From: Spirochaetales bacterium
Lineage (GTDB): Bacteria; Spirochaetota; Spirochaetia; JAFGXN01
Direction of reading: 5' to 3'
Assembly (NCBI GenBank): GCA_016936615.1
Contig: JAFGXN010000007.1
Location: 28,575-92,574 of the forward strand
DNA length: 64,000 nucleotides
The notes beneath the pieces were generated by a model. It was not told the origin of the DNA and made no database searches. It saw nothing but the letters and a program-made list of their open reading frames with translations. Shown piece after piece: positions 8,668 to 57,015 of this stretch (positions are counted from its first letter, which is position 1; every line of letters starts with the position of its first letter). The translations under genes and the position numbers were made by a program.

Positions 8668-8712
8668 TATTCAGTTTTTAAAATGAAATTATCCTAACAA
8701 ATGGAGGCTTAT

Positions 8713-9594: not shown

Positions 9595-9600
9595 CAAAAG

Positions 9601-14216: not shown

Positions 14217-14224
14217 AAACTCTC

Positions 14225-19013: not shown

Positions 19014-19014
19014 A

Positions 19015-19575: not shown

Positions 19576-19864
19576 TTTTTTCTCCTTCTTACGCGAAAGG
19601 AAAAACCGCCTGCAGGTCGATTTAACCACGGCTCTAGCAAAGTATCCTGACTCACAGGCAATTCCGCAGACACCTTCCCGATTTCTCAGTGGCATAGATC
19701 TACATCTTCCTGAATACAGTTGCGCGACAGTGCAGGATTCTCACCTGCTTCCATTGAACTAGAGCTAACGCAATACTAACAATATATTGAAATCTATTCA
19801 ATACAGTATTGACAATTCAAACCACATCTATTTAAAGTATTACTAATAAAGTTTAGGAGTAAAA

Positions 19865-40687: not shown

Positions 40688-42412
40688 TCAAAAAATTCTA
40701 TTTTTCACTACTTTTCTTGCTAAAAGAAGAGACGCAATCTGCAAAGAATAGGCATCACAGCCATTCTCAAGATAATCGGCTAAATCCTTAGCATGCGAGA
40801 AAATTGTACCTTGTGAAAAACCCTTAGCTTCAAGCCGTAGGGGATCTAACTCGAGAAATTCCGCATAATCTTGCGTCGAATTGCTGCGATGGCGGAGGAT
40901 TGAATGACATCCTTCAGGGGATATTACAGAAAAAAAGGAAAAATCCAACATGTAGAGATTTTTTTCTGAAGCTAGAGCAATTGCGCCGCCGCTTCCACCC
41001 TGGCCGGTTACGAAGGTGAAGACTGGAACTCTTGCATTTCCAATCCTGCCTGTCAGCTCGGCGATTATGCCGGCACTGTTCTCCTGCTCGGCGCGCGCCC
41101 CCGGAAAGGCGCCTGGAGTGTCAACAAAGCAGACTAACGGGATATTACAGAACTCAGCCTCACTGAGAATCCGCAAAATTTTACGGTAGCCTCCTGCATT
41201 TGCCATAGAGAAATTATATTCGAGGTTCTCGTCCCAGTTTTTTCCTTTGTTAAAATAGACGACAAAGAAAGGTAGCTGGCCGATAAAGCCGACTCCGGTG
41301 AAGAGAGCCTTATCGTCGCAAGATACCCTGTCGCCGTGAAGCTCAAAGAGGCTTGAAAATACAGAATTTGCAATCTGCGATGAATGGATATGAGACTGGG
41401 AACGGATAAATTTCAACAGATCCAATGAAGTTTTATGCTGAGAAAAAAACTCATTCCGCCGCGGTAATCTATCGCCGAGGAAGTCAGCCTTCCGCCTGCG
41501 CAGATTGCTCAAGTTCTCCCGCCGCAGCTGATTTCTCGCCGGCAAGTGATACCGCTTAGAAAATGTATAGACATAAAGAAGATTCTTCAGCGCGGCAGGC
41601 AGATTCCTGCGATGTAGAACCATGTCCACCTTGCCGCAGGTCAAAGCCCCTTCTGCAGATTGAATAAATGGATCAATCTCCTCGCCGATAGTGTCCCGAA
41701 TGACAGAAGGACCAGCAAAGCCGACAAACGCGCCTTTTTCTGCAATAATAATATTCCCAAGACTCGCAACGCTTGCGGTAATCCCCCCCGAAGTCGGATT
41801 AGTCATCACTACGAAGAGAGGAATCCCCTTGCGCCGCATTAGAATGCTGTTAGCCGACGCCGTGCGCATAGCCTGAAGCGAAGCAATCCCATCCTGCATC
41901 CTCGCACCGCCGGAAGCAGTAAAGACAACAAGCGGCAGAGACTTGCGGATTGAACGCCTTGTAATTTTTTCCAGAACAAGACCTTCTAAATGACCAAATG
42001 ATCCGCCGATAAAATCAAAGTCCATAATCGCAAAGCAGAGCCTCATCCCCGCAAGCCTAGCCTCGCCGGCAAAAATCGCAGAACCAAGACCTGACTTTTT
42101 CCTTGCAGAATCTAAATCTTCTATATAGTTAGGAAAAATTGACTGAACCTTCTCATGAGAGAGCAGCGCCGAAATATTCAGAGGTCGCACCGAACCAGCA
42201 TCAAATGTCATCTGAGCCCGTGCAAGTGCCGGAACCCTGAAATGATAATCGCAATGAGGACAAATATAGGAATTTTCCTGCACAGCAACTAGCGCCTTGC
42301 AGGATTTGCATAAAATCTGCTGATCCATAGACAAAATGTACCACAAAGACGTGTTTTTAAAAATATCAAAGTTGTTTTTTTTGCTGAAAAGATTTAAACT
42401 ATCCCCAATCAA
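40688..42412 (-). CDS. Acetyl-CoA carboxylase carboxyltransferase, fused beta (AccD) + alpha (AccA) subunits
   Basis: N-terminal AccD Zn-ribbon (CKSCKALV...CPHCDYHF) and AccD core (MTNPTSGGITASVASLG). C-terminal AccA core (FVDTPGAFPGARAEQENSAGIIA...VTGQGGSGGAIALA). Confidence 0.8.
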   Translation of the reverse strand: MIGDSLNLFSKKNNFDIFKNTSLWYILSMDQQILCKSCKALVAVQENSYICPHCDYHFRVPALARAQMTFDAGSVRPLNISALLSHEKVQSIFPNYIEDLDSARKKSGLGSAIFAGEARLAGMRLCFAIMDFDFIGGSFGHLEGLVLEKITRRSIRKSLPLVVFTASGGARMQDGIASLQAMRTASANSILMRRKGIPLFVVMTNPTSGGITASVASLGNIIIAEKGAFVGFAGPSVIRDTIGEEIDPFIQSAEGALTCGKVDMVLHRRNLPAALKNLLYVYTFSKRYHLPARNQLRRENLSNLRRRKADFLGDRLPRRNEFFSQHKTSLDLLKFIRSQSHIHSSQIANSVFSSLFELHGDRVSCDDKALFTGVGFIGQLPFFVVYFNKGKNWDENLEYNFSMANAGGYRKILRILSEAEFCNIPLVCFVDTPGAFPGARAEQENSAGIIAELTGRIGNARVPVFTFVTGQGGSGGAIALASEKNLYMLDFSFFSVISPEGCHSILRHRSNSTQDYAEFLELDPLRLEAKGFSQGTIFSHAKDLADYLENGCDAYSLQIASLLLARKVVKNRIF

Positions 42413-43290
42413 TGAAAATTTTTGTATTTCCAGGACAAGGCGACTCTCTTGAGCTAGAGGATATCCTGACTTTCGCAGGAGAAGAGTTCTTCGAAGAGCT
42501 TTTTCCTAATGAAAAATTACGACAAGCCCTGACTAGCGGAGAAATTGCGCCAGATTATTTTCAGTTTTTCTCATTTATTCACCAGATTGCAGCTGTGAAG
42601 GCTTTAGCCGGGCGCGGAGTCGAGCCAGATGTGGTTGCAGGCTTCAGCTTCGGAGAGTTTGCCTCCTACTGCACAGCTGGGATTCTCAGCTTCGAAGAGT
42701 GCGTGCGATTAGTTCTGTCGCGCAACCAGATTGCCAATCAGCTTGGCTGCAAAGATGCGCAGATGATGGCAGTTGTCGGGCTTAGCATTGGAGAGATTGA
42801 AGCTTTTGTAGAAAAATTCACACTCGATATCGAGATTACAAATTATAACACCTCGAAGCAATTTGTTATTGCAGGAAAAAATGCAGAACTCGCACGCTTT
42901 CAGGAACTTTCCGGTGCGGCAGTGGCGATGCTCAATCTGCCAGTCGCCTACCACAGCAGAACAATGGCAGCGGCACAGGAGGCTTTTGCAGAGGAAATCC
43001 GACAGTGCAAATTCTGCCAGCCACAGAAGATGATCCTCAGCAGCGTCTCCGGCAGATTGATTGACGATGCAGACGAAGCTAAGGAGCTGCTGCTGGTTCA
43101 AATGACTTCGCCGCTGAGATGGAGCGAGGCTTGTGCAACAATCGGGATTCTGGCGCCGGAGAGGATTTTCTTCCCGGGAGATGGGCGCAAAGTGCGGAAT
43201 ATTTGCCGCAAGAACAGGGTCGCAGGAGAGCTGATAAAGTGCGGCAGATTGGCGGAGTGCGCCACGGCAAGCGAGGTAGCAGATGACTAG
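42412..43290 (+). CDS. FabD-like acyltransferase (malonyl-CoA:ACP transacylase family) with variant active-site motif
   Basis: FPGQG start, active-site nucleophile in GFSFGE (canonical GHSLGE), downstream LNLPVAYHSR. Divergent from accDA, with ATGA overlap into the next gene. Confidence 0.7.
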   Translation: MKIFVFPGQGDSLELEDILTFAGEEFFEELFPNEKLRQALTSGEIAPDYFQFFSFIHQIAAVKALAGRGVEPDVVAGFSFGEFASYCTAGILSFEECVRLVLSRNQIANQLGCKDAQMMAVVGLSIGEIEAFVEKFTLDIEITNYNTSKQFVIAGKNAELARFQELSGAAVAMLNLPVAYHSRTMAAAQEAFAEEIRQCKFCQPQKMILSSVSGRLIDDADEAKELLLVQMTSPLRWSEACATIGILAPERIFFPGDGRKVRNICRKNRVAGELIKCGRLAECATASEVADD

Positions 43291-43576
43291 ACGTGGAGAG
43301 GTAGAATTTGAGAGCGGCGATGCGATATTCAGGGAACACTTCCCCGGGAACCCGGTCGTGCCGGGATCGTTCTTGATTGATTTTTTTGTGGAAAAAATTA
43401 AAGAAGATTGCAGAAAATGCAGATTTTTTACTATAGAAAAATTCAAATTTATAAAATTTCTCCAACCTGCAATCTACGAATGGGAGATTGAAGGTCGCGA
43501 CGGCGGGAAATTCATTTGTTTAATCCGAAAAGATGGTATAATATTCTCGAAGGGTACAATTACGGTGGGAAAATGA
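43283..43576 (+). CDS. Short FabZ/FabA-like hotdog-fold dehydratase
   Basis: HFPGNPVVPGSFLIDFF matches the FabZ active-site region (HFPG.P..PG). Only 97 aa, so the N-terminal about 30 aa of a canonical FabZ are absent. Confidence 0.5.
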   Translation: MTRRGEVEFESGDAIFREHFPGNPVVPGSFLIDFFVEKIKEDCRKCRFFTIEKFKFIKFLQPAIYEWEIEGRDGGKFICLIRKDGIIFSKGTITVGK

Positions 43577-44292
43577 TGGAATTTACAGGAATGACAGTGC
43601 TTATAACTGGTGCAAGCTCGGAAATTGGAATGGAGATTGCGCGGACGCTGGGAGATTGCGGGCTGAAGGTCATTGCGACTTGCCGCGGAAAGAAGATTGA
43701 TGGGCTGAAGGCTGCACTTGGCGATGGAGTTATCGTAAGTGAGCTGGATTTTGCGATGCCTGAGACTTTCGAGAAATTTGAGAACTACCAGATTGATTAT
43801 CTGGTGGATATTGCACATTCTGAGTACGAGTCGCTGATTGGCTTCTCGCAGCAGGCTGAGGTGGAGAGTTACTTCGCTCAGAACCTGGTCAACAAGATTG
43901 GATTCCTTCGCATTGTCGAGAAATCTATGATCAAGGGAAAATTCGGCCGCCTGCTCTATATCTCGTCAACGGCAGCCAAACGGCAGAACCCGGGGCAAAG
44001 CTTCTACGCGGCTTCGAAGCTGGCGATGGAGCAGATCTACCTGGGTATCGGGCTGGAAGCTGGCCGCAAAGGGCTGAGTTCGTTAATCCTTCGCCCCGGA
44101 TACATTGAAGCTGGACGGGGCAGACGCTTCACCGATGCTCTTGGCGGGAAAGTTGAAAAGCAGAAGATAGTCGCGCCAGCCGAGTTGGCCGCCAGTGTCG
44201 CCTTCTTCTTAAGCAACGCCGCACGGAAGATCTCCGGAACAATTATCACGATGGATGCTGGTATGAGTGCGGGGAAGAATTTTTATGGATAA
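43573..44292 (+). CDS. Short-chain dehydrogenase/reductase, FabG-like 3-oxoacyl-ACP reductase
   Basis: Cofactor-binding VLITGASSEIGMEIA, catalytic S...YAASK triad region, PG motif (RPGYIEAG). Confidence 0.8.
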   Translation: MMEFTGMTVLITGASSEIGMEIARTLGDCGLKVIATCRGKKIDGLKAALGDGVIVSELDFAMPETFEKFENYQIDYLVDIAHSEYESLIGFSQQAEVESYFAQNLVNKIGFLRIVEKSMIKGKFGRLLYISSTAAKRQNPGQSFYAASKLAMEQIYLGIGLEAGRKGLSSLILRPGYIEAGRGRRFTDALGGKVEKQKIVAPAELAASVAFFLSNAARKISGTIITMDAGMSAGKNFYG

Positions 44293-44325
44293 TAAGGGAT
44301 ATTATAAATACATAGGAGAAAATAT

Positions 44326-44781
44326 ATGATAAGAAGATCAGCCTTTGAAGGTAAAATGAAAATAAAAGAGTACAAGCGGAGCCCGTTACTGTATGTCTAC
44401 TTGATGCTGCTGGAAATACTCTCTTTTGGAATATGTATTCTTATGCTATTCTTAGGAGCAGATAGAGACGGAGTATTTTTCAGTGGAATATCAAACGGTC
44501 TGCTACTTGTATTTCCGTTCATAGGAATTTTATACTATATATCAGATAAAAAAATCCCTTACCTGACAATTTTCAATGATACTCTAATTGTAAATTGTAA
44601 TCCCTACTGGCCAAGCAAGATTCTCGAAATCTCACAAACGCAAGCTACAAAAATAAAAAAAGGCGTTTACCAGATGGGATATGACATTGTTCCGGTGAAA
44701 ATAAAACTCAGAAGCTTCAAGAGGAAGCAACGCAACGAAATTGAAAGCTTTCTTGATAGGCTTTGTGTTAGAGAGAGATAG
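44326..44781 (+). CDS. Small membrane protein (2 TM + cytoplasmic bacterial PH-like domain)
   Basis: Two hydrophobic helices followed by a about-70 aa domain. The architecture is shared with the next two genes. Confidence 0.35.
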   Translation: MIRRSAFEGKMKIKEYKRSPLLYVYLMLLEILSFGICILMLFLGADRDGVFFSGISNGLLLVFPFIGILYYISDKKIPYLTIFNDTLIVNCNPYWPSKILEISQTQATKIKKGVYQMGYDIVPVKIKLRSFKRKQRNEIESFLDRLCVRER

Positions 44782-44913
44782 GGAGTACCAACAATAGTTG
44801 AAGCATACCATGGCTAAATCAAATTTCTGATAAGGCTATATTCATAGACAAAATTTAAAATTTTCATTAAACTATTTGAAGATCAAAGATTATCTCAAAA
44901 GAGAGAGGAAAAC

Positions 44914-46128
44914 ATGCAGGAATATAAATTTTCATCGACGGAAAAAGTGTTTGTAGCTATCACTTCACCAATAATAATTGCATTAGGAGCAGGTTTCTGG
45001 CTTTCTCCTCTGAAGGATAAAAGCCTGGCAGGGCTAATATTTATTCTCGCAATAATTTTTATCTTCGGATCCTGCTCAATTCTAGCTATCGTAGAGGCTT
45101 TCAAAACAAAACTGGTAATCGAAGACGATAAAATTATAAAAACAGGAATATTCAGAACAACAACATTGGATTTCAAGGATATTGACGGCTTCTCAAAAAA
45201 CATACTTTATACAGAGATTATATCAAAAGAAAAAAAACGCAAAATAATCTTAACAAACCACTACTCAAATATACCAGACCTCCAATCTTTTCTTTCACAA
45301 AACTTCAAAAATCTTGATTCAACTGAAAATAAAGAGAAAGGAAGCTCGTTGTTTGTCACAAATTACAAAGAAATAAAATATATAAAAAAAGAGTTTCTGA
45401 AAAATAAAGAATTTGGGAAAAACTCTAATGAAGTAATGAGAAGATCTGAAAAAACTAAAAAATTTACAGAACCTTTTAATTTAATAGCATTTGCTGCCTT
45501 CATTGCACTGCTGATACTGAGAGGAAATCCAATTATAGTGATGATCAATATTTTTATCCCCATAATAGCTCTTTTCATTTCTGTAAAAAGCAGAGGGTTT
45601 ATAACAATAATAAAAGATAAAATAACGAACCAACCTACACTTTCTGGAGCAATAGTTGGGAGTCCATTTCTTCTTTGCATTTCAGTTTTCATGTCAGGAT
45701 ACAATGTCTATAGTTATAAAGCAATATGGTTACCTCTCATTATAATTTCAATTACAGGATGTTTTACAATTATAAAAATATACAAGCCGATGAGAAAGGA
45801 AAGCAGAAAAGCGAAAGTTTTTTGCCTAGCTGCAGGCTCAATTTTAATTGGCGCATACCTTTTTGGTGCGGCTATTCACATTAACTGCACTTTTGATATA
45901 AAGCCAGACGAAATTATAACAGAAAAAGTCCTTGAAAAAAGGAGAATTAGAGGTAGAAAAAGAACATCATATACAATAACTGTTACGGATTGGGAAAATG
46001 AGACCGAGGTCATAGAATTAGATATATCATCAAGACAATTTTACACTCTAAAAGAAAACAGTAATGTAAACATAGTTCAGAAACAAGGACTTCTAGGCAT
46101 CCCATGGTGCTACGTCCAGAGAGAATAG
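44914..46128 (+). CDS. Polytopic membrane protein with an inserted PH-like domain (paralog family)
   Basis: 2 TM + KLVIEDDKIIKTGIFRTTTLDFKDIDGF domain, then about six more TM helices and a C-terminal soluble tail. Confidence 0.4.
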   Translation: MQEYKFSSTEKVFVAITSPIIIALGAGFWLSPLKDKSLAGLIFILAIIFIFGSCSILAIVEAFKTKLVIEDDKIIKTGIFRTTTLDFKDIDGFSKNILYTEIISKEKKRKIILTNHYSNIPDLQSFLSQNFKNLDSTENKEKGSSLFVTNYKEIKYIKKEFLKNKEFGKNSNEVMRRSEKTKKFTEPFNLIAFAAFIALLILRGNPIIVMINIFIPIIALFISVKSRGFITIIKDKITNQPTLSGAIVGSPFLLCISVFMSGYNVYSYKAIWLPLIIISITGCFTIIKIYKPMRKESRKAKVFCLAAGSILIGAYLFGAAIHINCTFDIKPDEIITEKVLEKRRIRGRKRTSYTITVTDWENETEVIELDISSRQFYTLKENSNVNIVQKQGLLGIPWCYVQRE

Positions 46129-46136
46129 AAATGATC

Positions 46137-46934
46137 TCAATAAAGAACAAACGAAGCCACCCCAATATATAGAATTAACAGAAATATTGTCAATGGCAAA
46201 AAGCAAACCATGGTATTACTGTTTCCTGCATATATACGATTCTTAAAATCCTGAGCAAGAAAAAAGAAGAATGCGCCAGCCAAAACAATTTCCGAATATA
46301 CAAAAACTTGCAAAGTAAATAAATCATCAATAACGTAATACATCTTTATAAAAATACCTGTGGCTATCAATCCTGAAATTATAGTAAAAAACAATGCTGC
46401 AAATTGCCAAAATCTTAGCCTTTTCATTGCTTTTTTCTTATTTTTTTCTATATTACGAAGAATAGATTCGCCATTCTCCAGAATTCTTGACTGAAGAATA
46501 GCCAGAAATTCATCCTGCCGCTCCAATCCATATATCATAAACTTAGAACCCTTTATCCTCACTTCAATCTTTGAAAGCACACTCATAGGCCAATGAGTCC
46601 GAACAGAAAGAATATCCTGAACTCTGATTCTTGAGATGGAATCCTTTCTCAAATCACGAATTTCCAGAGTATTTGAAAAGATAGAAACGCTCACCCTCTG
46701 ACTTTTTTTTGAGAGAAAGACAATAGAACAGATAATAGCAAAAAGATCAAACAATAAATAATAAAGAAAATTACCACGCATATCCTTATTTGAAATCAGT
46801 AGATAAGTCGCGAAAAAGAAAGGTAAATAAATCGAAACACACACGTTCAGAAAAATTTTTTCCCATCGCTTCATAATTGCCGACTCCGATGTGCGAAATT
46901 CGGCAAAATCAGTTTCATTTGTATAATTATTCAT
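46137..46934 (-). CDS. Membrane protein, 2 TM + PH-like domain + 3-4 TM (paralog family)
   Basis: Same architecture as the two preceding genes (VSVSIFSNTLEIRDLRKDSISRIRVQDI). Confidence 0.4.
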   Translation of the reverse strand: MNNYTNETDFAEFRTSESAIMKRWEKIFLNVCVSIYLPFFFATYLLISNKDMRGNFLYYLLFDLFAIICSIVFLSKKSQRVSVSIFSNTLEIRDLRKDSISRIRVQDILSVRTHWPMSVLSKIEVRIKGSKFMIYGLERQDEFLAILQSRILENGESILRNIEKNKKKAMKRLRFWQFAALFFTIISGLIATGIFIKMYYVIDDLFTLQVFVYSEIVLAGAFFFFLAQDFKNRIYAGNSNTMVCFLPLTIFLLILYIGVASFVLY

Positions 46935-46971
46935 GGATACCTCTTTGATAAAAATCTAATATGATATTCGG

Positions 46972-48045
46972 CTATTCTAGTTCCTGCCAGGAAATATACA
47001 TACATGCGACAAAAACTTCCCCCCTAATAAAACGAAAGCCAACCCAATAAGAAAAAGCGGGCTCCTCATAAACAAACCTGTCAGTAAATTCCTTAGTTTT
47101 AAGATCATAAATCAACCCCTCATCTAGCAAAGAAATATATAATTTTCCATTATACTCTTGAACCTGAAAGGCCTCAAAATAAGGATTTGCATATTTTTGT
47201 AAATTAACAATAGATTGAAACTCAAGTTTTTCAAAATTAAATTTATAAATTGAGCTAACAGAAGCAATAAAAGGATGATTTTCTAGATGTCTCCTTAAAA
47301 CAGAACAATACTCAGACGGGAGAGGTTTAATATAAGCAATCCCCAAGGAATCATCATATAGTAAATATTCATCGTAATAATAAAACGCCCCAATTATAAC
47401 TGCATAATATTTATCTACACACAGAACCTTACTATAAGAAGTGCTAAAATTCATAAATTCGTAAACTTCAGATTTAGAATATAAAACAATACTCGACTGG
47501 TTCTCTTCGACCTCTCCAATACTTTTATATTCTTCTTGGCAAAACTTATCATTAGAAATAATAAGCCGCAAGACTTCTCCAGATTTAGACTTTACTATCA
47601 GCTGATCTGAATCGGACACTAAAATTTTATCTACATCAGCAAAACTATCAATAACTTCAAATTTATAATTCTGATAATCCAGAATCTCTAACTTCAAATC
47701 CTCTTCAATTCTTTCAGCCCTTATAAATTTTGAATTCTCTGTTATACCAATCACATGCTGTCCATCAAATAAAAAATTATTAGTTGAATCATATATCGTA
47801 TTTTTTTCAAATTCACAATACTGGGTAAGCATATACCTAAAATTATCATCTTCACAATCAAAATAATCTTCTAGATATGGTATTTCTTCACTTTTCTTAA
47901 GCCCCTGATCAAAATTATAAACATCTCTCCCAATTTTATGCTCAATCAAATTACCTTGAACAGTTAAACAAGTATTAATCATAAATAATAATAGAAATAT
48001 CTTCTTCATAAAATCTATCCTACAACAGCAGTAGTTTTCATTCAA
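46972..48045 (-). CDS. Hypothetical secreted protein
   Basis: N-terminal signal peptide (MKKIFLLLFMINTCLTVQG). No recognisable domain. Confidence 0.4.
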   Translation of the reverse strand: MNENYCCCRIDFMKKIFLLLFMINTCLTVQGNLIEHKIGRDVYNFDQGLKKSEEIPYLEDYFDCEDDNFRYMLTQYCEFEKNTIYDSTNNFLFDGQHVIGITENSKFIRAERIEEDLKLEILDYQNYKFEVIDSFADVDKILVSDSDQLIVKSKSGEVLRLIISNDKFCQEEYKSIGEVEENQSSIVLYSKSEVYEFMNFSTSYSKVLCVDKYYAVIIGAFYYYDEYLLYDDSLGIAYIKPLPSEYCSVLRRHLENHPFIASVSSIYKFNFEKLEFQSIVNLQKYANPYFEAFQVQEYNGKLYISLLDEGLIYDLKTKEFTDRFVYEEPAFSYWVGFRFIRGEVFVACMYISWQELE

Positions 48046-48333
48046 TATTTTTTATAGGAATTTTCGTTATAATAACTATTTATATATAGAAAGCTACTAA
48101 TTATTACAAAAAAATATTTCTTTATATCTCTTCACCAATCCTTTCCCATTTGACAATTCCCAAATTCACAGATATTCTGCAAATATACGCACCAGCCTTA
48201 ATTCACGAATCCAGAACTTAAATCAACTGAAATCATTTTTGCTACAGACCTGCGCTTTTTACTGTTAGGAGGTAGTCATGAACCGGAAGGAAAGGACAAA
48301 CCTTACCAGTGTTCTGATGGCTTTTTTATAAGA

Positions 48334-49106
48334 ATGGGAGCTAACACACAGAAGATGAACCGCGATGGGATTATCGAGTTCCTTCAATCAGAGGGGCAAA
48401 TCAGATTTGAAGAACAGTTGCACAGGAAATATGAAATAGAGCGGGATTTTGTTCCTCAGAAGTTGAGATCTTATCTTGAAAGAGCAGGAATAGTCTCGAC
48501 CCTCGATGACGAATCAATATTGCTTAACCTCGGCGTTGCAACCAAAGTGGGTGACAAGCTACGAATGAACAATGCAGGTGTACTTTTTTTTACAGAATCT
48601 ACACAGCTACTCTGTGAACAAGCAACAATCACCTGTGGAGTCTTCGATGGCACAGCTCGAATAAACGTTTTAAACCGAAAGGACTACTCGCTTGACATGA
48701 TTACAAACATCAACAACACCCTACACTTTATCAAGCAGGAGCTACGAGTAAAATACGAGATGCAGGAGCACCCGAACCTCTCTTCGAATTTGGAAGCTTC
48801 TACACAATAATCTTCCCCCGCCCTGGCTACGCAGCAAAAAACAAGCAAACAAGCTCAGGAGTTGATTCGGAGAAAAGTTCGGAGATATCTATGACTAAGT
48901 TGGGAGAAAAGTTGGGAGAAAATGAACTGAAAGTGATAGACGAAATCTACAAAAATAAAAAAGCCTCTATTTCATCAATTGCCGACGCAACAAACCTAAG
49001 CACCACAGGAGTCGAGAAAATAATTGCCCGCCTGAAAAACAAAAACATTCTAAAACGAGTCGGTCCATACAAGGGTGGACACTGGGAGATCGTCGATAAG
49101 GCGTAG
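48334..49106 (+). pseudogene. Decayed Schlafen/AlbA_2-type ('divergent AAA', RecG-C-like) transcriptional regulator, split into two ORF fragments
   Basis: ORF 48334-48810 carries the tail of an AlbA_2 domain (NAGVLFFTES...ITCGVFDGTAR). ORF 48891-49106 is a stand-alone C-terminal wHTH module (ISSIADATNLSTTGVEKIIARLKNKNILKRVG). Intact members carry both plus an ATPase-like middle region in one about-450 aa protein. Confidence 0.4.
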
Positions 49107-49177
49107 TAAAAAGAATTAATTCATTTTTTTATTTACAAAAAAATTATCATCACTTACAATGATGCAAGATCAGAAAC

Positions 49178-50053
49178 ATGGAGAACAAAGTGAAAAGAAT
49201 TTCAGGACTAGCTATCTTTTTTTTAATAATAACAAGACTACATGCGTTTGACATTAACAAAGATAATTTCTCAATAAAAGTTGACATCGGAGAATACCTT
49301 GTAGCCAATGACGAAGAAATTTTTCTAATAGAATGGTTTGAAGAGATTCCAACGATTATAAATAAATCTAAGAGACAAGATAAAATTTTAAATGCGAATG
49401 GTTATTCATCTATCAGCATAGGCGGGCAAGAATACTTTATCGTTGAGCTAAATGGTAGATTTTTTTCAACACAAAAGAGCGATTATATTAAAGAAGACTT
49501 TACCTTTTTAGAGGGGCAAGTTCAGGTAAAAAAAGTAAATGCTAGTTCCGAACTTTTAGAAAAATCCACAAAAGGAGAAACTCTATACAGGGGTATATTT
49601 CCACTGTTTAGATTAACTGCTGAAAAACCATTTGGATATTTTATCAATTATAATGGACTTCCTTGGGTTCCAGATGTAAAAAGAGACAAAATTCCATATC
49701 TAGATATTGAATTAGAAGAAGCAGTTGAAACAATTAGTCTCATCCCTGGATTTTTGGATTTCAAAAGACAAAACCTTTTTTATGATAACTCCAGAGTAAA
49801 ATCAATTGAAATAACAAATTTTGAGACAAACAAAAGCCTCGGTGTATTCATTCTTGAAGATAAAATAAAGTACACAACAATATGTCTAAGCGAGGAAGTA
49901 AAGAATTTCCGCATTAAGATTATAGATACTTACCCAGGGAAAAAATACAATGATCCTTGCATATCATCAATAATCTTTAATTTTGGTAAAGAGACAGGCG
50001 ATTACGGATTGAAAGATCTGGAATTGTTTAAAAACATGGGAATTCTAAAATAA
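49178..50053 (+). CDS. Hypothetical secreted protein
   Basis: Signal peptide (ISGLAIFFLIITRLHA). No recognisable domain. Confidence 0.45.
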   Translation: MENKVKRISGLAIFFLIITRLHAFDINKDNFSIKVDIGEYLVANDEEIFLIEWFEEIPTIINKSKRQDKILNANGYSSISIGGQEYFIVELNGRFFSTQKSDYIKEDFTFLEGQVQVKKVNASSELLEKSTKGETLYRGIFPLFRLTAEKPFGYFINYNGLPWVPDVKRDKIPYLDIELEEAVETISLIPGFLDFKRQNLFYDNSRVKSIEITNFETNKSLGVFILEDKIKYTTICLSEEVKNFRIKIIDTYPGKKYNDPCISSIIFNFGKETGDYGLKDLELFKNMGILK

Positions 50054-50122
50054 AAACGTATAGAACTGATCTATAATTTTTCTATGATGGCTAGTCGTGA
50101 AAGATTCTAAATTTATTCCAGC

Positions 50123-50290
50123 TCACGCCCCAATCTTTGGATCTGCTATCAATACCTCTGCGGGAATACCAAGACCGGAGTGCAATTGACGAATCATGGA
50201 TAGCGATAAACTTCTTTTGCGATTCAGAACCTCTGAGACCTTGCTGCGACTACCAATATATTGAACTAAATCAGAATGAGAAAGCCCCAT
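50123..50290 (-). pseudogene. Remnant of a HigA-type (XRE/HTH_3) antitoxin gene, C-terminal HTH part only
   Basis: Unlisted 55-codon reverse-strand ORF: MGLSHSDLVQYIGSRSKVSEVLNRKRSLSLSMIRQLHSGLGIPAEVLIADPKIGA. It matches the conserved HigA HTH (..LSQSDLA..LGVSRSHVSEILNGKR.LT.EMIRKLHK.LGIPADVLL). The about-40 aa N-terminal part and any HigB partner are missing. Confidence 0.4.
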
Positions 50291-50300
50291 TCACCCATTC

Positions 50301-50329
50301 TTGACACTCCAACAATTTTAAAAGATAAT
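50301..50329 (+). promoter_or_regulatory. Putative sigma70 promoter for the ACP-KAS-AOS operon
   Basis: TTGACA-17 nt-GATAAT, about 95 nt upstream of the ACP start. Confidence 0.35.
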
Positions 50330-50425
50330 ATATAAAATAGCTGTTGCAGCGACTCCGCGCGGCGGGGGTTTTGGATTTTCAGCATCGCAGATGCATTTTT
50401 CAGGAAATCAGATACAGGAGAAAAT

Positions 50426-50791
50426 ATGGACACCGAGGCAAAGATTATTGAAATGATTGCGGAGATTCTTGATTTGGATCAGGAGGAGATCTCTGGAGAA
50501 AGTTATATGGTCAGGGATTTGGAGGCAGAGTCGATTGATCTGCTGGAGCTCGCAGTTGAGCTTAATTCAGCGTTTAAGATGAAAATCGACGAGAATATGG
50601 CTTTTTTGAAGACCCTAAGGGTGCACATCAAAGAGGCTGCGGATAACGGAAGCGATGCCGCAGATGCAGTAGCTGAGAATTTTCCATACTTGAGCACGCA
50701 GAGAATTAAAGATATATTGCTAGAGCTTGCAAACGGCCCTGTGCTGAAGGTCAAGGACATCGCAAACTACATCCAGTACAAAGGAAATTAA
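50426..50791 (+). CDS. Acyl carrier protein (dedicated, with C-terminal extension)
   Basis: Phosphopantetheine attachment context DLEAESIDLLELAVELNSAF (compare [20 protein letters not shown]). 121 aa versus about 78 aa for housekeeping ACP. Confidence 0.7.
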   Translation: MDTEAKIIEMIAEILDLDQEEISGESYMVRDLEAESIDLLELAVELNSAFKMKIDENMAFLKTLRVHIKEAADNGSDAADAVAENFPYLSTQRIKDILLELANGPVLKVKDIANYIQYKGN

Positions 50792-51433
50792 ATGCTAGAT
50801 AAAATTATCCGCGAACGACGGACAATCAGAGAATATACTCAGGAAATTCCTCCCCTTGAATTGAGAAAAAAGGTCGCAGAGGCTGGGTTATACGCCCCCA
50901 CTGCGACAAATTCTCAGCCATTCTTGATTCGAGAACTGAGCAAAGACGAGGTAGCTTCGATACAAAACCTGATGGAGAAGCGCTACGAGGAATTACTTGC
51001 TGCAGCAGAGAGTTGCGAAGACAAGAAAGTCGCAAAAGTCATAAATTTCTATTGGAGATTCAGCAAGCCAGTTCTGGCAGCACCGATTGTGTGGCTTTTT
51101 CTTGGGGAAAAAACTCCAAGCTTCACGCAGAGGCTTCAAGATGCTGGCCTTATCTCCTACACCGAAGCTAAGGCTAGCTCAGCCATGAGGATCTCCCTCG
51201 GATGTGTAATCCAGAACATGCTGCTCAAGGCAAAGGAGCTGGGACTAGGCTCCGGCGTCTACAGTGCACCATTTATTTTTCTTGAAAAAGATGAATCCGC
51301 CCTACTCGAAGACCTCGGCATCGACAGCCAGAAGTACTTCCCAGCAGAGTTTCTGACCATTGGCTATCCGGCAGAGAATCCTGACCGGCCGCACAGTAAA
51401 ACACTCGATGAGGTTTTTAAATACAATGAATGA
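50792..51433 (+). CDS. Nitroreductase-family flavoprotein
   Basis: N-terminal RRTIREYT and ...APTATNSQPF motifs typical of the nitroreductase/NADH-oxidase fold. Translationally coupled to the ACP gene upstream and the KAS gene downstream. Confidence 0.65.
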   Translation: MLDKIIRERRTIREYTQEIPPLELRKKVAEAGLYAPTATNSQPFLIRELSKDEVASIQNLMEKRYEELLAAAESCEDKKVAKVINFYWRFSKPVLAAPIVWLFLGEKTPSFTQRLQDAGLISYTEAKASSAMRISLGCVIQNMLLKAKELGLGSGVYSAPFIFLEKDESALLEDLGIDSQKYFPAEFLTIGYPAENPDRPHSKTLDEVFKYNE

Positions 51434-52595
51434 AAAAGTCGTGGTCAGCGGCGTTGGATTTGTCCTCAATGATGTTCAGAGCCTAGCCGACATCGCAGAA
51501 AAATATGATAATCCCTCTGTAAATTTTAACTTTTTCACTACGAAAAGCGGAGAGACCTTCCCGACACTACCCATCGCTGGCTTCGACCTCGCATCCATCG
51601 TCGGCAGGTGCAAGAACAAGCGCTACCTCCCGAGGGCAGGACAGTTCGGCCTTGCTGCGGCAAAGCTGGCAATCAACGATGCAAATCTATCCGAGGATGC
51701 GCTAACTGGTGCCGGACTCTTCTCCGGGCTAGGCCCCAACCTCGAAGAATCATACGAAGATGCAGAGACAAAGGCACTCTGGCTGCTTAATTTTTTACCC
51801 AATACACTCAATTCAGTAATCACAAGCCAGTTCAAGATTCACGGCGGGGCTAACACCTACGGCAACGCCTGTGCAGCCTCAACCCAGGCAATCGCAGAGG
51901 CCTTTGAGAAGGTAAAATTCGGACTCCTCCCGCTTGCAATCGCTGGCGGCGCTGACTCGCGCATCAACGAATACGGAATATCAAGCTATGCAAGCGCACA
52001 GGCGCTCTACAAACTCGAATCCCGTCCCAATCTACCCGACTCGAACTCGCCCGACACAGCAGACTACGCAGTCGACTACAGGCCAATGACAGCTACACCG
52101 CGCGGATTCGTCCCCGGCGAAGGCTCGGCCTACCTCGTAATCGAGACAGAGACGTGCGCAATCGCCCGCGGTGCATCAATCTACGCTGAAATTCTCGGCT
52201 GCGGCTACTCCAGCGACGGCTACAACATGACCGCCCCCGACCCGGACGGGTTCTACGCGGGCAAAGCTATCGAGATGGCTCTCTCCCGCGCGGGCCTCAC
52301 TCCATCACAGATCGATTGCGTCTCCTGCCACGGCACCGGAACCAGCCGCAACGACGAAATGGAACAGAAATTGCTAGAATCCATCTTCGGCAGCAGACAG
52401 CCTGAAATTTTCACCTTCAAGAAGATCTTCGGCCACCTTGCCTCAGCCTGCGGCGCAGCCGAAACTGTCGCGACAATTGCTATGCTGAATAGTCAGTCAA
52501 CAAGCCCGCGCGCGACAGCTCTGATTCAGAACTTCGGCTTCGGCGGCCAGAACACAGCCCTAATCATTCGAAAATACGAGCGCCGCAATGGATAA
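51426..52595 (+). CDS. Beta-ketoacyl-ACP synthase I/II (FabF/FabB-like)
   Basis: Active-site Cys in GGANTYGNACAAS and the two His motifs (CVSCHGTGTSRND, KKIFGHLASACGAAE). ATG at 51426 overlaps the upstream stop (ATGAATGA). Confidence 0.85.
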   Translation: MNEKVVVSGVGFVLNDVQSLADIAEKYDNPSVNFNFFTTKSGETFPTLPIAGFDLASIVGRCKNKRYLPRAGQFGLAAAKLAINDANLSEDALTGAGLFSGLGPNLEESYEDAETKALWLLNFLPNTLNSVITSQFKIHGGANTYGNACAASTQAIAEAFEKVKFGLLPLAIAGGADSRINEYGISSYASAQALYKLESRPNLPDSNSPDTADYAVDYRPMTATPRGFVPGEGSAYLVIETETCAIARGASIYAEILGCGYSSDGYNMTAPDPDGFYAGKAIEMALSRAGLTPSQIDCVSCHGTGTSRNDEMEQKLLESIFGSRQPEIFTFKKIFGHLASACGAAETVATIAMLNSQSTSPRATALIQNFGFGGQNTALIIRKYERRNG

Positions 52596-53004
52596 GTTCA
52601 CCAGCGGGCGCGACTCGATTTTTTTAATAGCAAAAATACGGAAATTCACCCCAACAATGATGAAAGTTAGTTCAAAGCCTCTTTCCGGCAGGAGCTGGGA
52701 GGTCTGCGAGCTGATGGCACAGACCGGCTCATTCCACGCGCGCATCCTCACCAAGTTTGAGCGGCAATCTTTCTTCCTGCAAGTCAAAGAGCTACGGCTG
52801 CCTGCACGAATCCACGGCAGATGCACCGCGAAGGCTCGCCTGATTGAAAGCTCAGAGACAAGTTTCAAGTACGAGGTGAAAATCTCGCGTCACTGCTATG
52901 GAATTTTTTTCTTTAGTACATTAAAATATGAGAACTTCAACGAAGCAGAGCAGTTAAGCGACTTTTACAAAGGGCAGGTAAAAAAGATATGGAAAAAATT
53001 CTGA
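52588..53004 (+). CDS. Hypothetical protein (138 aa) embedded in the KAS-AOS operon
   Basis: In frame, GC-rich like its neighbours, and overlapping both flanking genes. No recognisable motif. Confidence 0.4.
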   Translation: MDKFTSGRDSIFLIAKIRKFTPTMMKVSSKPLSGRSWEVCELMAQTGSFHARILTKFERQSFFLQVKELRLPARIHGRCTAKARLIESSETSFKYEVKISRHCYGIFFFSTLKYENFNEAEQLSDFYKGQVKKIWKKF

Positions 53005-54116
53005 GGCGTCTAACAAATGAGTTGGAGGCGCTTGCACAGCAGGGGCTTTACCGCAGACCGGTTCTACGCGACAATTCGAACCGCGATTTTATAAATCTCT
53101 CGTCAAACGATTATCTTGGACTTGCCTCTTCGAAATTTGCAAAAAAGGCGCTAATTGCCTCAATCAAGAAGAACCAGGTCGGCGCTGGCGCGTCACGGCT
53201 TGTTACCGGGAATTTTAAGAGCATAACCGATGCGGAGCGGGAGTTTGCGCAATTCTTCAGATATGAGGATTGCCTTTTTTTCAGCAGCGGCTTTCAAGCC
53301 AATACAGGGCTAATCTCAAGCCTATTTTCCAGCGATGACTGCGTTTTCTTTGACAAACACGTGCACTCTAGCATGGTCTTCGGACTCGAGGGATCACCTG
53401 CGACGATTAAATCGTTCAAGCACAATGACTTAGAACACTTAGACAAACGGTTAGAAGCCTGCAATGTCGCTGGACAGAAGGTTGTCCTGACAGAATCATG
53501 TTTCAGCATGGACGGGGATTGCCCCGATTTCGAAGCGCTCGCAAGATTAAAGAAAAAGCACAACCTATTCGTGATTGTCGATGAGGCCCACTCTTTCGGT
53601 CTTCTCGGCGAAAAAGGTTGCGGGCTTGCCGGTGATGTGGCTGATATCGCAGTCGGCACCTTTGGAAAAAGTTATGGTCACTACGGGGCTTTTCTACTTT
53701 TACCCACACATATCAAAGAGTACCTGATCAACACCTCGCGACCACTAATCTACACGACAGCACTACCCCCCTACTTCGGCGATTTTGCTCTCCGCCTGCT
53801 ACGAAAATCAGCGACAATGGAAAAAGAACGAGCCACCACGCTAGAACTTGCCGCCTACTTGAAAAAGCGACTTCAATCTGAAGGCTTCTCAGTGGCAGGC
53901 GATGCACACATTCTGGCAATCGAAATCGGCAATGAGGCCCGTGCTGCAGAAATATCAAAGCAGCTGTTAGATGCAGGCTTCATGGCTGGTGCAATCCGCT
54001 TCCCGACAGTTCCATTGAATAAGGCGATAATCCGTGTAAGCTTGAATTGTGGACTGAAGAGAACACAGATTGAAAAATTCTGTGATTATTTGGCTCAATA
54101 CATTAGAGATATTTGA
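52989..54116 (+). CDS. Alpha-oxoamine synthase family PLP enzyme (BioF / serine palmitoyltransferase / KBL / CqsA-like)
   Basis: N-terminal LSSNDYLGL, PLP-lysine motif TFGKSYG, and D..H (VIVDEAHSFG) motifs. Confidence 0.8.
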   Translation: MEKILRRLTNELEALAQQGLYRRPVLRDNSNRDFINLSSNDYLGLASSKFAKKALIASIKKNQVGAGASRLVTGNFKSITDAEREFAQFFRYEDCLFFSSGFQANTGLISSLFSSDDCVFFDKHVHSSMVFGLEGSPATIKSFKHNDLEHLDKRLEACNVAGQKVVLTESCFSMDGDCPDFEALARLKKKHNLFVIVDEAHSFGLLGEKGCGLAGDVADIAVGTFGKSYGHYGAFLLLPTHIKEYLINTSRPLIYTTALPPYFGDFALRLLRKSATMEKERATTLELAAYLKKRLQSEGFSVAGDAHILAIEIGNEARAAEISKQLLDAGFMAGAIRFPTVPLNKAIIRVSLNCGLKRTQIEKFCDYLAQYIRDI

Positions 54117-54173
54117 CATATTAGAACATTAATGGTAATATTTCCACATACCATAAGGTATTAGGGGAAAAAA

Positions 54174-55496
54174 ATGTCAACAACTACTACAATATCAACA
54201 AAGATCGGAAATAGAATAGTCGATGTCGAATGTCTGAGATTAACACCACAAGAGATAAATCTTTTTTTAACACCAAAGCTAGAATCTGACCACTTCACTA
54301 GCAAGGAAGACTATATGGAGAAGGTCTCACTTTGGCTGATTCCTGAACTTGCGGAAGCGGAATTGCAGAAGGAAGACTACAAATCCCTCTACTACTCGCT
54401 ATTGAGACTTCACCCGACGATGGAATATGAAAGACTAGAGTTCTGGAAGTCTCGTGGCTTTGAGCCAGATTATTGTGTAGAGTTTCAAGAACAGAGAACT
54501 AACACCTTTGCACCACGCCCGACAACTGCGAAGCAATTCCAGCAACAGCGGGGAAGAGCTGCAAATATTGCAGGGAAGCTTAGGGAAACTAATATAGAAG
54601 AACTTAAATTAAAGGTAAAAGAGGATGTCATGGGCCAAGACAAAGCTATCGATGCGATCTTTGACTGGCTCTACCTTATTGCAGGTGGTGCAACTAGCGA
54701 CAGGGCTAATCTTTTCTGTGGATACCTGATGGGACCATCTGGTGTGGGCAAGACCTCATTTGTCGAATCACTCTCTGCCCACTCCGGAATAAATTTCAAA
54801 CAATTCTCAGGCTCCGAATATCAGGAGGCCTACGATGCTAAACGCTTCCTCGGTTCTGCGCCAGGACTTGTCGGCTACGATGAAGAGGGCGGCCCGCTAC
54901 AGAAATTCGTAGCAAGATACCCTGACGGAATAATCCTCTTTGACGAGGCTGACAAAATGCACCCATCAATCTGGACAGCTCTAACCAACTTTCTCGACAA
55001 GGGGGTAATCCAGGACGGCAAGGGCAAAGATCTCTACTTCAATGGACTAATATTTTTCACAAGCAATATCGGCTACAATTTCTTCGACACTCAGATGTCT
55101 ATCGGCTTTGATAAAGAGAACAAAGCCGAGCTTGAAGAAAAAAGATTAAAAAAACTTATTGAAAAGCAGCTCCCATTCGAAATAATCGGACGAATTAACG
55201 ACTTTTTCCAATTTGAGAAACTTAGCAAAGAGGATCTGAACATGATTCTCGCTCAGACAATCAGCAAGAAGAACAACGCGCTGGTCTCAGGCAAGATAAG
55301 CCTCTGCCACTCAGCATGCAATTACATAATTGACAAGGCCTTTGACCCGAAGACAGGCGCGAGAAATCTCCACCACGTCTACGAGAAGGAGATTCTGCTC
55401 CCATTTATCAAGACAAGCCTGTCATCTGACAAAGAAAAATCGGTATTTGTAACTTACGAAGAGGAACAGTTAGTATTTGAGGATGTAACAGCATAA
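54174..55496 (+). CDS. Stand-alone Clp/Hsp100 D2-like AAA+ ATPase (AAA_2 + ClpB_D2-small) with a unique about-145 aa N-terminal region
   Basis: VMGQDKAIDAI sensor region, Walker A GPSGVGKTS, Walker B ILFDEADKMHP, arginine-finger/sensor-2 region, and C-terminal KTGARNL. No second AAA domain. Confidence 0.65.
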   Translation: MSTTTTISTKIGNRIVDVECLRLTPQEINLFLTPKLESDHFTSKEDYMEKVSLWLIPELAEAELQKEDYKSLYYSLLRLHPTMEYERLEFWKSRGFEPDYCVEFQEQRTNTFAPRPTTAKQFQQQRGRAANIAGKLRETNIEELKLKVKEDVMGQDKAIDAIFDWLYLIAGGATSDRANLFCGYLMGPSGVGKTSFVESLSAHSGINFKQFSGSEYQEAYDAKRFLGSAPGLVGYDEEGGPLQKFVARYPDGIILFDEADKMHPSIWTALTNFLDKGVIQDGKGKDLYFNGLIFFTSNIGYNFFDTQMSIGFDKENKAELEEKRLKKLIEKQLPFEIIGRINDFFQFEKLSKEDLNMILAQTISKKNNALVSGKISLCHSACNYIIDKAFDPKTGARNLHHVYEKEILLPFIKTSLSSDKEKSVFVTYEEEQLVFEDVTA

Positions 55497-55504
55497 AGAA
55501 GAGA

Positions 55505-55537
55505 CTGCCCCGAAGAGATTCAGGGCAGATTTTTTTT
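55505..55537. terminator. Intrinsic terminator between convergent genes
   Basis: CTGCCC-12 nt-GGGCAG stem followed by a run of eight T. Confidence 0.5.
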
Positions 55538-55542
55538 ATAAT

Positions 55543-56898: not shown

Positions 56899-57015
56899 AT
56901 ATCCTCCTAGATAAAGGCTAAACAACATCAAGATTCATGTCAAATTTTTACAAATGATATCAAAATAAACGGTTTTTCTATATTTCTAAAAAAAAAATTC
57001 TAAAGCCATAACTAG

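Follow-up and report, generated by a model that had tools for sequence, protein, structure and literature searches.

A new route to the pimeloyl precursor of biotin was predicted from an 'extended biotin operon' by Rodionov et al. 2004 (PMC545781), and the atypical biotin cluster of Desulfovibrio vulgaris Hildenborough (DVU2558-DVU2565 together with the nitroreductase DVU1220) has been described along with relatives from Syntrophia and Desulfobacterota (PMC545781, PMC10102598). The cluster, which includes two FabZ-like genes, a ketoreductase, a special acyl carrier protein (ACP) and a beta-ketoacyl-ACP synthase (KAS), and the nitroreductase were needed for biotin-free growth in transposon fitness assays (Trotter et al. 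2023, PMC10102598). Proposals made in that study include a specialised ACP and the nitroreductase-like protein as a possible enoyl reductase; the cluster was reported from Desulfobacterota and Chrysiogenetes only, and the biochemistry of the Desulfovibrio-type pimeloyl-ACP route was stated as still to be worked out. No later enzymology of this route was found in our literature searches. Here a 64,000-nucleotide stretch of a Spirochaetales metagenome-assembled genome (MAG; contig JAFGXN010000007.1, positions 28,575 to 92,574), referred to below as the window, was analysed for two GC-rich blocks that an initial annotation had taken for a split, horizontally acquired lipid-biosynthesis island.

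The two blocks are the halves of a single nine-gene module, accDA / fabD-HD1-SDR // ACP-NR-KAS-ORFx-AOS, where HD1 and ORFx are hotdog-type proteins, SDR is a short-chain dehydrogenase/reductase, NR a nitroreductase-superfamily flavoprotein and AOS an alpha-oxoamine synthase. The module is a new architectural variant, in a further phylum, of the known biotin-precursor pathway. It is best explained as the spirochaete counterpart of the atypical first stage of biotin synthesis known from Desulfovibrio and Syntrophia, and we put the probability of this explanation as a whole, including the history of the locus given below, at roughly 0.6. Judged from its genes, the likely product would be pimeloyl-ACP and then 8-amino-7-oxononanoate (KAPA) and not a lipid.

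Gene content and collinearity with biotin operons

Gene families were assigned from Pfam and NCBIfam scans of the cluster proteins, and two related spirochaete loci, the contigs carrying the AOS homologues P0002 (L009, 13 kb) and P0003 (L010, 21 kb), were used for comparison. The features of the module are listed below with the G+C content at third codon positions (GC3) for several genes.

40688..42328, minus strand: accD-accA fusion (accDA), 546 aa, joining the beta and alpha halves of carboxyltransferase behind an N-terminal Cys4 zinc ribbon; GC3 0.464
42329..42411, no strand: accDA/fabD divergent promoter region, 83 nt, with the same 83-nt spacing in L009
42412..43290, plus strand: FabD/MdcH-like malonyl-CoA:ACP transacylase with a GFSFGE serine motif; Pfam Acyl_transf_1; GC3 0.529
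43283..43576, plus strand: HD1, a small FabZ/ApeI-like hotdog protein with a weak Pfam FabA match and homologues with ApeI-like or FabA matches
43573..44292, plus strand: SDR of the classical type, presumed 3-oxoacyl-ACP reductase with TGxxxxIG and YxxxK motifs; Pfam adh_short; GC3 0.583
50426..50791, plus strand: specialised ACP, 121 aa, extended at the C terminus by a long tail and carrying the serine motif ESID; Pfam PP-binding
50792..51433, plus strand: NR, candidate enoyl-ACP reductase; Pfam Nitroreductase
51426..52595, plus strand: FabF/KasB-type KAS, the probable ATG start overlapping the NR stop; GC3 0.621
52588..53004, plus strand: ORFx, second hotdog-fold protein, 138 aa, from an AlphaFold2 model and Foldseek
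52989..54116, plus strand: AOS of the BioF clade, presumed KAPA synthase, with the pyridoxal-phosphate lysine in GTFGKS

The scans agreed with the gene content first read from the sequence (an accD-accA fusion, a divergent fabD-like/hotdog/SDR operon and an ACP-nitroreductase-KAS-ORF-AOS series) and with its inventory of carboxyltransferase, malonyl transferase, ketosynthase, ketoreductase, dehydratase and AOS but no classical enoyl reductase. The accDA protein matched Pfam ACCA and Carboxyl_trans and, below the respective cut-offs, NCBIfam accD (211 bits) and AccA_sub (196 bits); its start was placed at the ATG at 42328 by alignment with L009 and L010, while the open reading frame (ORF) list extends it to a TTG at 42412. 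Sub-cut-off matches were likewise obtained for the FabD-like protein (mdcH, 135.8 bits and fabD, 126.1 bits) and for the SDR, whose top NCBIfam match was FabG (98.7 bits) and whose start was set at the ATG overlapping the HD1 stop. The Cys-His-His triad of the KAS was intact in an alignment to 2gp6, and the nearest solved structure to NR was the BluB-like flavoprotein 3eo8. The AOS, which is 100% identical to MBN2650910.1, matched the NCBIfam bioF model best (323.8 bits, cut-off 426), followed by serine palmitoyltransferase (222.7) and CqsA (179.4), and its best solved structures were the BioF/KBL entries 8s1y and 7poa as well as E. coli BioF 1bs0. The promoter region between accDA and fabD contained the motifs AATGTAyCAyAA, AAAGTTGTwTTTT and ATTTAAACT in the window, L009 and L010, and these may be read as two divergent sigma-70-type promoters.

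Seven core genes (HD1, SDR, ACP, NR, KAS, ORFx and AOS) were collinear with the biotin operon of a Syntrophaceae MAG (L014; bioB / birA-bioA-HD1-SDR-ACP-NR-KAS-ORFx-bioF-bioD) with one-to-one identities of 29-45%, the SDR-ACP-NR-KAS order being identical once the insertion separating the two blocks was removed. Syntrophus gentianae (L011) had the order bioA-HD1-ACP-NR-KAS-ORFx-bioF-bioD and a further locus, L015, was similar. The window SDR was 33% identical to the SDR within the L014 operon, while identities to the operon proteins of both L011 and L014 were 39-40% for the ACP, 31-35% for NR, 39% for the KAS and 45-46% for the AOS against BioF. A lipid-biosynthetic role was not borne out, as the core is collinear with and homologous to complete biotin operons and matches the Desulfovibrio cluster.

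Shared with the Desulfovibrio/Syntrophia set were the two FabZ-like hotdog proteins, the SDR, the long specialised ACP, the FabF-type KAS, the nitroreductase-like flavoprotein and BioF, in the internal order HD1-SDR-ACP-NR-KAS-ORFx-BioF seen in L014, with a DVU2560-type hotdog gene upstream and a DORF42491-type one between KAS and bioF. The hosts are anaerobes and no bioC or bioH was seen in either case. Unlike that set, the window cluster belongs to a Spirochaetales MAG, is not embedded between bioA and bioD or adjacent to bioB and birA, has gained a divergent AccD-AccA fusion and a FabD-like transacylase, is only 29-46% identical and is split by 6.1 kb in this genome.

Other systems were more distant. 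The BioC-BioH route of E. coli also passes pimeloyl-ACP made in two fatty-acid-type rounds from a malonyl primer to BioF, but there the omega-carboxylate is hidden in a methyl ester and elongation relies on the housekeeping fatty-acid synthase II and AcpP, whereas in the window no methyltransferase or esterase was in view and a dedicated ACP, ketosynthase, ketoreductase, dehydratase and putative enoyl reductase lie beside BioF. In the BioZ route of alpha-proteobacteria (PMC7645780, PMC8024396) a dedicated ketoacyl-ACP synthase likewise commits carbon to pimeloyl-ACP without methyl esters. BioZ is a FabH-like KAS III using glutaryl-CoA from lysine catabolism and malonyl-ACP, followed by housekeeping fatty-acid synthesis, unlike the FabF/KasB-like synthase of the window with its own reductive enzymes. 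Aryl-polyene type II clusters share a small ApeI-like hotdog protein, a dedicated ACP, a ketosynthase and a ketoreductase; they differ in having no AOS, nitroreductase-like gene or ORFx family member and in carrying genes for a chain-length factor, a ligase and export, none of which the window cluster has. An AOS gene adjoins an ACP gene in serine palmitoyltransferase/ACP sphingolipid loci and CqsA-type autoinducer synthase loci as well, but the window AOS favours bioF over both models and stands in biotin-operon collinearity.

Several results weigh against the biotin assignment. Every cluster protein fell below its NCBIfam equivalog cut-off and the proteins are therefore divergent members of their families. 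The genes bioA, bioD, bioB and birA were not found by tblastn and Pfam in the 64-kb window, in L009 or in L010, the Pfam scans of the window covering nearly all ORFs of at least 150 aa, and these missing late genes (bioA, bioD and bioB) are the main weakness of the assignment since the link to biotin in spirochaetes is thereby carried by homology and collinearity only. No BirA-type operator was seen when the conserved accDA/fabD promoter region of the window, L009 and L010 was read directly. A carboxyltransferase alone cannot make malonyl-CoA and no gene for a biotin carboxylase or biotin carboxyl carrier protein was in view. Among the genes of other pimeloyl routes, none of bioC/bioH, bioW, bioZ and bioE was found in the 64-kb window.

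The absence of bioA, bioD, bioB and birA from all three spirochaete loci would also fit a module that has been uncoupled from biotin and makes pimeloyl-ACP, KAPA or a related short omega-carboxy amino-ketone for another purpose such as a signal or building block, and this would account for its linkage to accDA and fabD instead of the late biotin genes. The sub-cut-off bioF score of the AOS, an architecture unlike every Desulfobacterota example seen and the retention in another lineage (L012, L013) of an ACP-NR-AOS trio only, away from bio genes, point the same way. However, in other bacteria the late biotin genes frequently lie apart from the early ones, for example at the separate loci described in PMC545781, the AOS is still about 45% identical to in-operon BioF and has BioF proteins as its best matches, and tailoring or export genes are absent beside the cluster. 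Uncoupling is thus considered unlikely, and a biotin-precursor module is the preferred reading.

The trio was observed at two loci of GCA_053940125.1 (L012, 9062-11134; L013, 509-2581), which had no KAS, hotdog or nearby bio genes, and suggests that ACP, nitroreductase and AOS form a functional core of their own. A malonate decarboxylase was also considered and rejected: the ACP is of the ordinary phosphopantetheine type, the core is collinear with bio operons, and the fusion prefers the accD and accA models (211 and 196 bits) over malonate_beta (40), MdcH, MadC and MadD being homologous to FabD, AccD and AccA.

Proposed chemistry and the two hotdog proteins

In the proposed route AccD-AccA, with a biotin carboxylase and carrier encoded elsewhere, would form malonyl-CoA, and the FabD-like enzyme would transfer the malonyl group to the specialised ACP. 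The Cys-His-His KAS would extend a malonyl primer through two rounds with the free omega-carboxylate retained, making the BioC/BioH methyl ester unneeded, and in each round the SDR would act as ketoreductase, the two hotdog proteins as dehydratase and the NR-like flavoprotein as enoyl reductase. The BioF-like synthase would then convert pimeloyl-ACP and L-alanine to KAPA. On a plain reading, accDA and the FabD-like gene ahead of the core would provide a dedicated supply of malonyl-CoA and malonyl-ACP, which would be understandable in hosts devoid of housekeeping fatty-acid synthesis; the packaging of this supply with the seven core genes suggests a complete set for heterologous reconstitution. 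A more tentative extension, to which we give somewhat less than even odds, is that the spirochaete form is a self-contained nine-gene acetyl-CoA-to-KAPA unit in organisms perhaps without housekeeping fatty-acid synthesis. That extension has three requirements. The enoyl-ACP reductase must be the NR flavoprotein, which would be a new structural class of the enzyme; the FabZ-like dehydratase must be split between HD1 and ORFx, one polypeptide carrying the histidine and the other the glutamate; and the KAS must take a primer with a free carboxylate. The module in this genome would also document how a complete vitamin-pathway operon was exchanged at its own locus for a GC-richer allele.

The lack of an enoyl reductase that the initial annotation remarked on is the same gap as noted for Desulfovibrio. 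A nitroreductase-fold domain in FbiB reduces an activated C=C bond, so that a role of NR as enoyl reductase is chemically plausible, and the spirochaete variant strengthens the case for the nitroreductase-like protein as the missing enzyme.

The FabZ histidine motif HFPxxPVVPGS of HD1 was invariant in all six genomes examined, while the FabZ-glutamate position, 14 residues further, varied (D, E, G, S, H and S in the six genomes); the E. coli FabZ sequence used in this motif alignment is approximate. ORFx gave no match in the Pfam and NCBIfam scans. Its AlphaFold2 model from a 24-sequence alignment (pLDDT 92), which superseded an unusable model from a 2-sequence alignment (pLDDT 42), had a hotdog fold, and Foldseek matched it to hotdog thioesterases and FabZ with TM scores up to 0.65. 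An invariant motif on the central helix, E41-x2-A-Q-x-G-x2-H-x-R, whose portion E-x-x-A-Q-x-G opens the helix and was unchanged in 24 of 24 sequences, resembles the FabZ motif EAMAQ, and the FabZ-type histidine motif was absent from ORFx.

The active site of the FabZ dimer receives its histidine and its glutamate from different subunits, and the simplest reading is therefore that HD1 and ORFx pair as a heterodimer in which one site is complete. Their motifs complement each other and point to a two-protein dehydratase of FabZ-like type in which the FabZ-type histidine would come from HD1 and the FabZ-type glutamate from ORFx, and this would account for the need of both hotdog genes in D. vulgaris. 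Aryl-polyene clusters offer a precedent for a two-protein hotdog dehydratase (ApeI/ApeP). Counting against such a pairing, Foldseek placed hotdog thioesterases slightly above FabZ for ORFx by E-value, the profile-profile comparison of ORFx with HD1/FabZ (hhalign) was non-significant (probability <1%) and a search of PDB sequences with the ORFx profile gave no match, so that the hotdog assignment of ORFx derives from its predicted fold. A thioesterase role for ORFx is possible on the basis of the model.

The ORFx family is small, with 72 representatives at E <= 0.001 in 1.84 billion proteins, only three of them spirochaete-type, and a metagenome scan with the ORFx alignment gave no match. The public annotation of ORFx (MBN2650909.1, JXR63_00900) is 96 aa, from Met43, and is too short: the 138-aa form aligns with the L009 protein from residue 1 and was also called in the Logan assembly, while the 96-aa call drops Glu41 of the invariant motif because of its start at Met43. 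For annotation, a cluster that looks like 'lipid or polyketide' is better named a biotin-precursor module, with ORFx mis-called in the public record.

Ancestry of the locus and the GC-rich tract

Large-database homologue searches were made with two of the nine proteins, AOS and ORFx. The nearest AOS homologues among 5.8 billion protein clusters were P0002 (61% identity) and P0003 (51%), followed by thousands at 44-48%, and of those with a named source most were from Syntrophia or Desulfobacterota. The best ORFx matches were likewise in the syntenic spirochaete relatives. A genome-contig scan with the AOS returned only ordinary Flavobacterium bioF (32-34% identity) and no close relative in that collection.

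All nine genes were contiguous in both L009 and L010 (accDA / fabD-HD1-SDR-ACP-NR-KAS-ORFx-AOS), thereby answering a question raised by the initial annotation as to whether the two blocks adjoin elsewhere. Flanking genes common to the window and L009 included a CbiA/Fer4 pair and two Nitro_FeMo-Co genes upstream and PTS_EIIA and a Na/H exchanger downstream, while L010 shared GGDEF and MCP genes upstream and an AAA+ gene (AAA_2) and a TP_0584-like gene downstream. Protein identity between the window and L009 was 61-77% for flanking genes and 48-61% for the cluster, the pairwise identities followed ((window, L009), L010) for every cluster gene, and the window cluster proteins were no nearer to Syntrophus than the L009 and L010 proteins were. 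In the relatives the GC3 of the cluster equalled that of the flanks (L009, 0.13-0.33; L010, 0.23-0.39) and the codon usage was likewise native. Since the relatives carry all nine genes in the same synteny and the window proteins are nearest to theirs, the cluster is an old resident of the site and the module is ancestral at this chromosomal position in this spirochaete lineage, extending the range of the pathway to another phylum. A side observation in L010 (3576-7395) was that accDA, fabD, HD1 and SDR had a GC3 of 0.31-0.39, higher than the last five genes (0.23-0.25) and the flanks, a faint echo of the heterogeneity in the window.

The claim that a foreign pathway had been acquired did not stand, as the best AOS and ORFx matches are in the same lineage and synteny is kept on both sides. 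That claim supposes an acyl-lipid island that came recently from a distant donor of higher GC content, was later split by insertion and served to make, for example, a sphingoid-like or aminolipid base by the action of an AOS on an ACP-bound fatty acyl chain. It can draw on the atypical synonymous-site composition, on a gene set holding carboxyltransferase, acyltransferase, ketosynthase, ketoreductase, dehydratase, ACP and AOS, on Desulfobacterota and Syntrophia as the sources of the nearest AOS proteins outside the lineage (44-48%), and on the match of serine palmitoyltransferase models to the AOS, weaker than bioF (222.7 vs 323.8 bits). It is made very improbable by the two relatives, where the cluster occupies the corresponding syntenic site and has native composition, by proteins nearest to L009 and L010 and not to another phylum, by the collinearity of the seven-gene core with complete biotin operons and by the lack of mobility genes, tRNA genes and repeats at the outer edges. 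The pairwise identities of the cluster proteins excluded a fresh import from another phylum.

The sliding GC profile had plateaus of 0.45-0.55 at about 40.7-44.3 kb and 50.4-55.5 kb with a trough of 0.30-0.39 between them, and was mostly 0.32-0.42 elsewhere. GC was 0.478 in block 1 (40688-44292) and 0.495 in block 2 (50426-54116), as against 0.334 in the inter-block DNA (44293-50425) and 0.374 in the remainder of the window, confirming that the two blocks are richer in GC than their surroundings and that GC and codon statistics across the region are clearly non-uniform. The second block had been given as about 50.4-54.1 kb; its start was correct, while at the right the tract runs on through a neighbouring gene (GC 0.437) to about 55.5 kb.

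54174..55496, plus strand: stand-alone ClpB-D2-like AAA+ ATPase, outside the pathway but within the GC-rich tract; GC3 0.478; syntenic right neighbour in L010

Long antisense ORFs reported in the blocks (42709-43446, 43474-43818 and 53294-53659) were all present, a GC-rich coding region producing such ORFs. The contrast was strongest at synonymous sites. Against a background GC3 with a mean of 0.332, a standard deviation of 0.046 and a maximum of 0.432 (n=43 window genes), the nine cluster genes had a GC3 of 0.41-0.62 (z = 1.6 to 6.2), with z at least 2.9 in eight of the nine (2.9-6.2) and the short hotdog gene as the exception. Codon shifts in the cluster extended across nearly all amino acids (CGC, GGC, CCC, CCG, CTG, TAC and TGC), with fractions in cluster and background of 0.29 vs 0.05 for CGC, 0.40 vs 0.13 for GGC and 0.61 vs 0.28 for TAC. 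Amino-acid composition (GARP vs FYMINK) was non-discriminating as a marker of residence in a GC-rich genome, the L010 cluster proteins being likewise GARP-rich. No mobility genes, tRNA genes or repeats were found at the outer edges of the tract, and the one repeat seen at junctions borders the AT-rich insert.

The anomaly is specific to this genome because the same genes in L009 and L010 carry flank-like GC3 and codon usage, and the three syntenic copies of contrasting composition make a clean case of atypical GC without the gain of a new function. We hold with moderate confidence that the tract from accDA to the AAA+ gene was replaced at the same locus by homologous exchange with the allele of an unsampled GC-richer relative having the same gene order; the exchange of a chromosomal segment is suggested by the inclusion in the shifted tract of the pathway-unrelated AAA+ gene, a syntenic neighbour in L010. 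Two points weigh against a replacement. No donor candidate was found, the nearest AOS among the 5.8 billion protein clusters being 61% identical, and the Lys and Glu codons of the cluster (AAG 0.45, GAG 0.54) are near the host background (0.50, 0.57), which fits a close-relative donor and equally a local process. The frequent use of AAG and GAG in the host background is unusual for an AT-rich genome.

Both points would be expected if the GC content arose in place, e.g. by GC-biased gene conversion in a segment that recombines often, or if an ancient transfer from Desulfobacterota was ameliorated only in the relatives, and Syntrophia-type clusters indeed have a GC3 of about 0.4-0.5. Yet the three spirochaete copies are 30-61% identical in protein and synonymous sites must therefore have turned over many times; with such saturation a relic signal could not persist in one lineage only. 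The shift is moreover large (0.33 to about 0.53), stops at the cluster edges and covers the unrelated AAA+ neighbour, making an in-place or relic origin improbable, and a relic of an ancient transfer taken by itself was excluded on the protein divergence of the three copies. A replacement by a relative's allele is retained as the preferred history.

As the source is a MAG and the composition switches four times, a mosaic produced by assembly or binning from two related populations was also weighed. Logan contigs from run SRR13394436, made with a different assembler, reproduced two of the four boundaries at 100% identity (L016, window 49554-53710; L017, window 53740-56871), although that run may contain the same reads. 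Exact-sequence look-ups of the AOS, the first insert ORF, the SDR and accDA gave no record, and as a consequence of the last three the two left-hand boundaries were not recovered and are without independent confirmation. Chimeric joins would need long shared exact words, which would not be expected at four intergenic points between such different sequences, and the insertion junctions have a clean 12-nt direct repeat. A chimera is regarded as the least probable of the alternatives, with only a slight chance of being correct.

The 6.1 kb insertion and neighbouring features

The distance from the SDR stop to the ACP start was 8-16 nt in L009 and L010 and 6.1 kb in the window. The insertion is real and falls precisely between these two positions, and the earlier view of one cluster interrupted by a later insertion was upheld by the spacing in the relatives. 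Its features are as follows.

44314..44325, plus strand: left direct-repeat copy AGGAGAAAATAT, 12 nt, comprising ribosome-binding site and spacer and abutting the ATG of the first inserted ORF
44326..50415, no strand: inserted DNA, 6,102 bp with one repeat copy counted in; 33% GC; not present in L009 or L010
44326-44781, 44914-46128, 46137-46934 (minus strand) and 46972-48045 (minus strand): four orphan ORFs
48334-49106: regulator fragment and winged helix-turn-helix fragment; GC3 about 0.47, within a GC-richer sub-block at 48.2-49.1 kb
49178-50053, plus strand: secreted NADase-type glycan-binding-domain (F5/8 type C-like) protein; NCBIfam NF047619, 55 bits; Pfam NADase_transloc
about 50120-50290, minus strand: antitoxin-like stub with a weak HTH_3 match, E = 0.0096
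50301..50329, plus strand: promoter-like site TTGACA-17-GATAAT, 11/12 consensus match, within the right-hand end of the insert and some 100 nt ahead of the ACP gene
50353-50377, plus strand: GC-rich hairpin and T-run, between the promoter-like site and the ACP start
50416..50427, plus strand: right direct-repeat copy AGGAGAAAATAT, 12 nt, its last two bases being the first two of the ACP start codon

Exact copies of AGGAGAAAATAT occurred only twice in the 64-kb window, once at each junction, and the repeat could be a target duplication or microhomology of an illegitimate recombination. The insert, too, is foreign in composition, though shifted the other way from the cluster, with a codon usage (AAA 0.72, GAA 0.69) that differs from the host background (0.50, 0.43) and is also unlike the cluster. 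Neither transposase, integrase nor tRNA genes were found in the insert, the window being without tRNA genes, and it contained no known defence system or long terminal repeats and had no match in plasmid or phage collections.

The descriptions first given to the inserted genes fared unevenly. Three membrane ORFs, which had been called paralogous, had no detectable similarity to one another by BLASTP. Fragments of a regulator were present, while the label Schlafen-like was weakly supported as the 158-aa fragment (48334-48810) had no Pfam or NCBIfam match and a weak PADLOC pAgo model match only (E = 3.4e-4); the adjoining 71-aa ORF is a winged helix-turn-helix protein (HTH_24). A stub named as HigA is present as the antitoxin-like stub with the weak HTH_3 match listed above.

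The nine cluster genes were intact, with all ORFs aligning at full length to their L009 counterparts. The TTGACA-17-GATAAT site is a candidate new promoter for the severed half-operon, judged by its consensus match, and the hairpin and T-run downstream could attenuate or terminate transcription into the second half-operon.

The PADLOC models DolB and PDC-M37B were matched weakly (E about 1e-17) by the AAA+ ATPase to the right of the module. Its gene is convergent with a TP_0584-like lipoprotein gene (55543-56931, minus strand), and this pair follows the cluster in L010 and is absent in L009. Two further vitamin-related features were seen elsewhere in the window.

19619-19778, minus strand: cobalamin riboswitch, Rfam RF00174, 69.7 bits, preceding the operon described below
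8701-10158, plus strand: PdxS/PdxT (SOR_SNZ and SNO) pyridoxal-phosphate synthase pair

The operon headed by the riboswitch (11372-19695, minus strand) encodes a TonB-dependent receptor, TonB, a periplasmic binding protein, a FecCD permease and an ABC ATPase and is probably a B12 uptake system, while the PdxS/PdxT pair represents a second vitamin pathway in the window.

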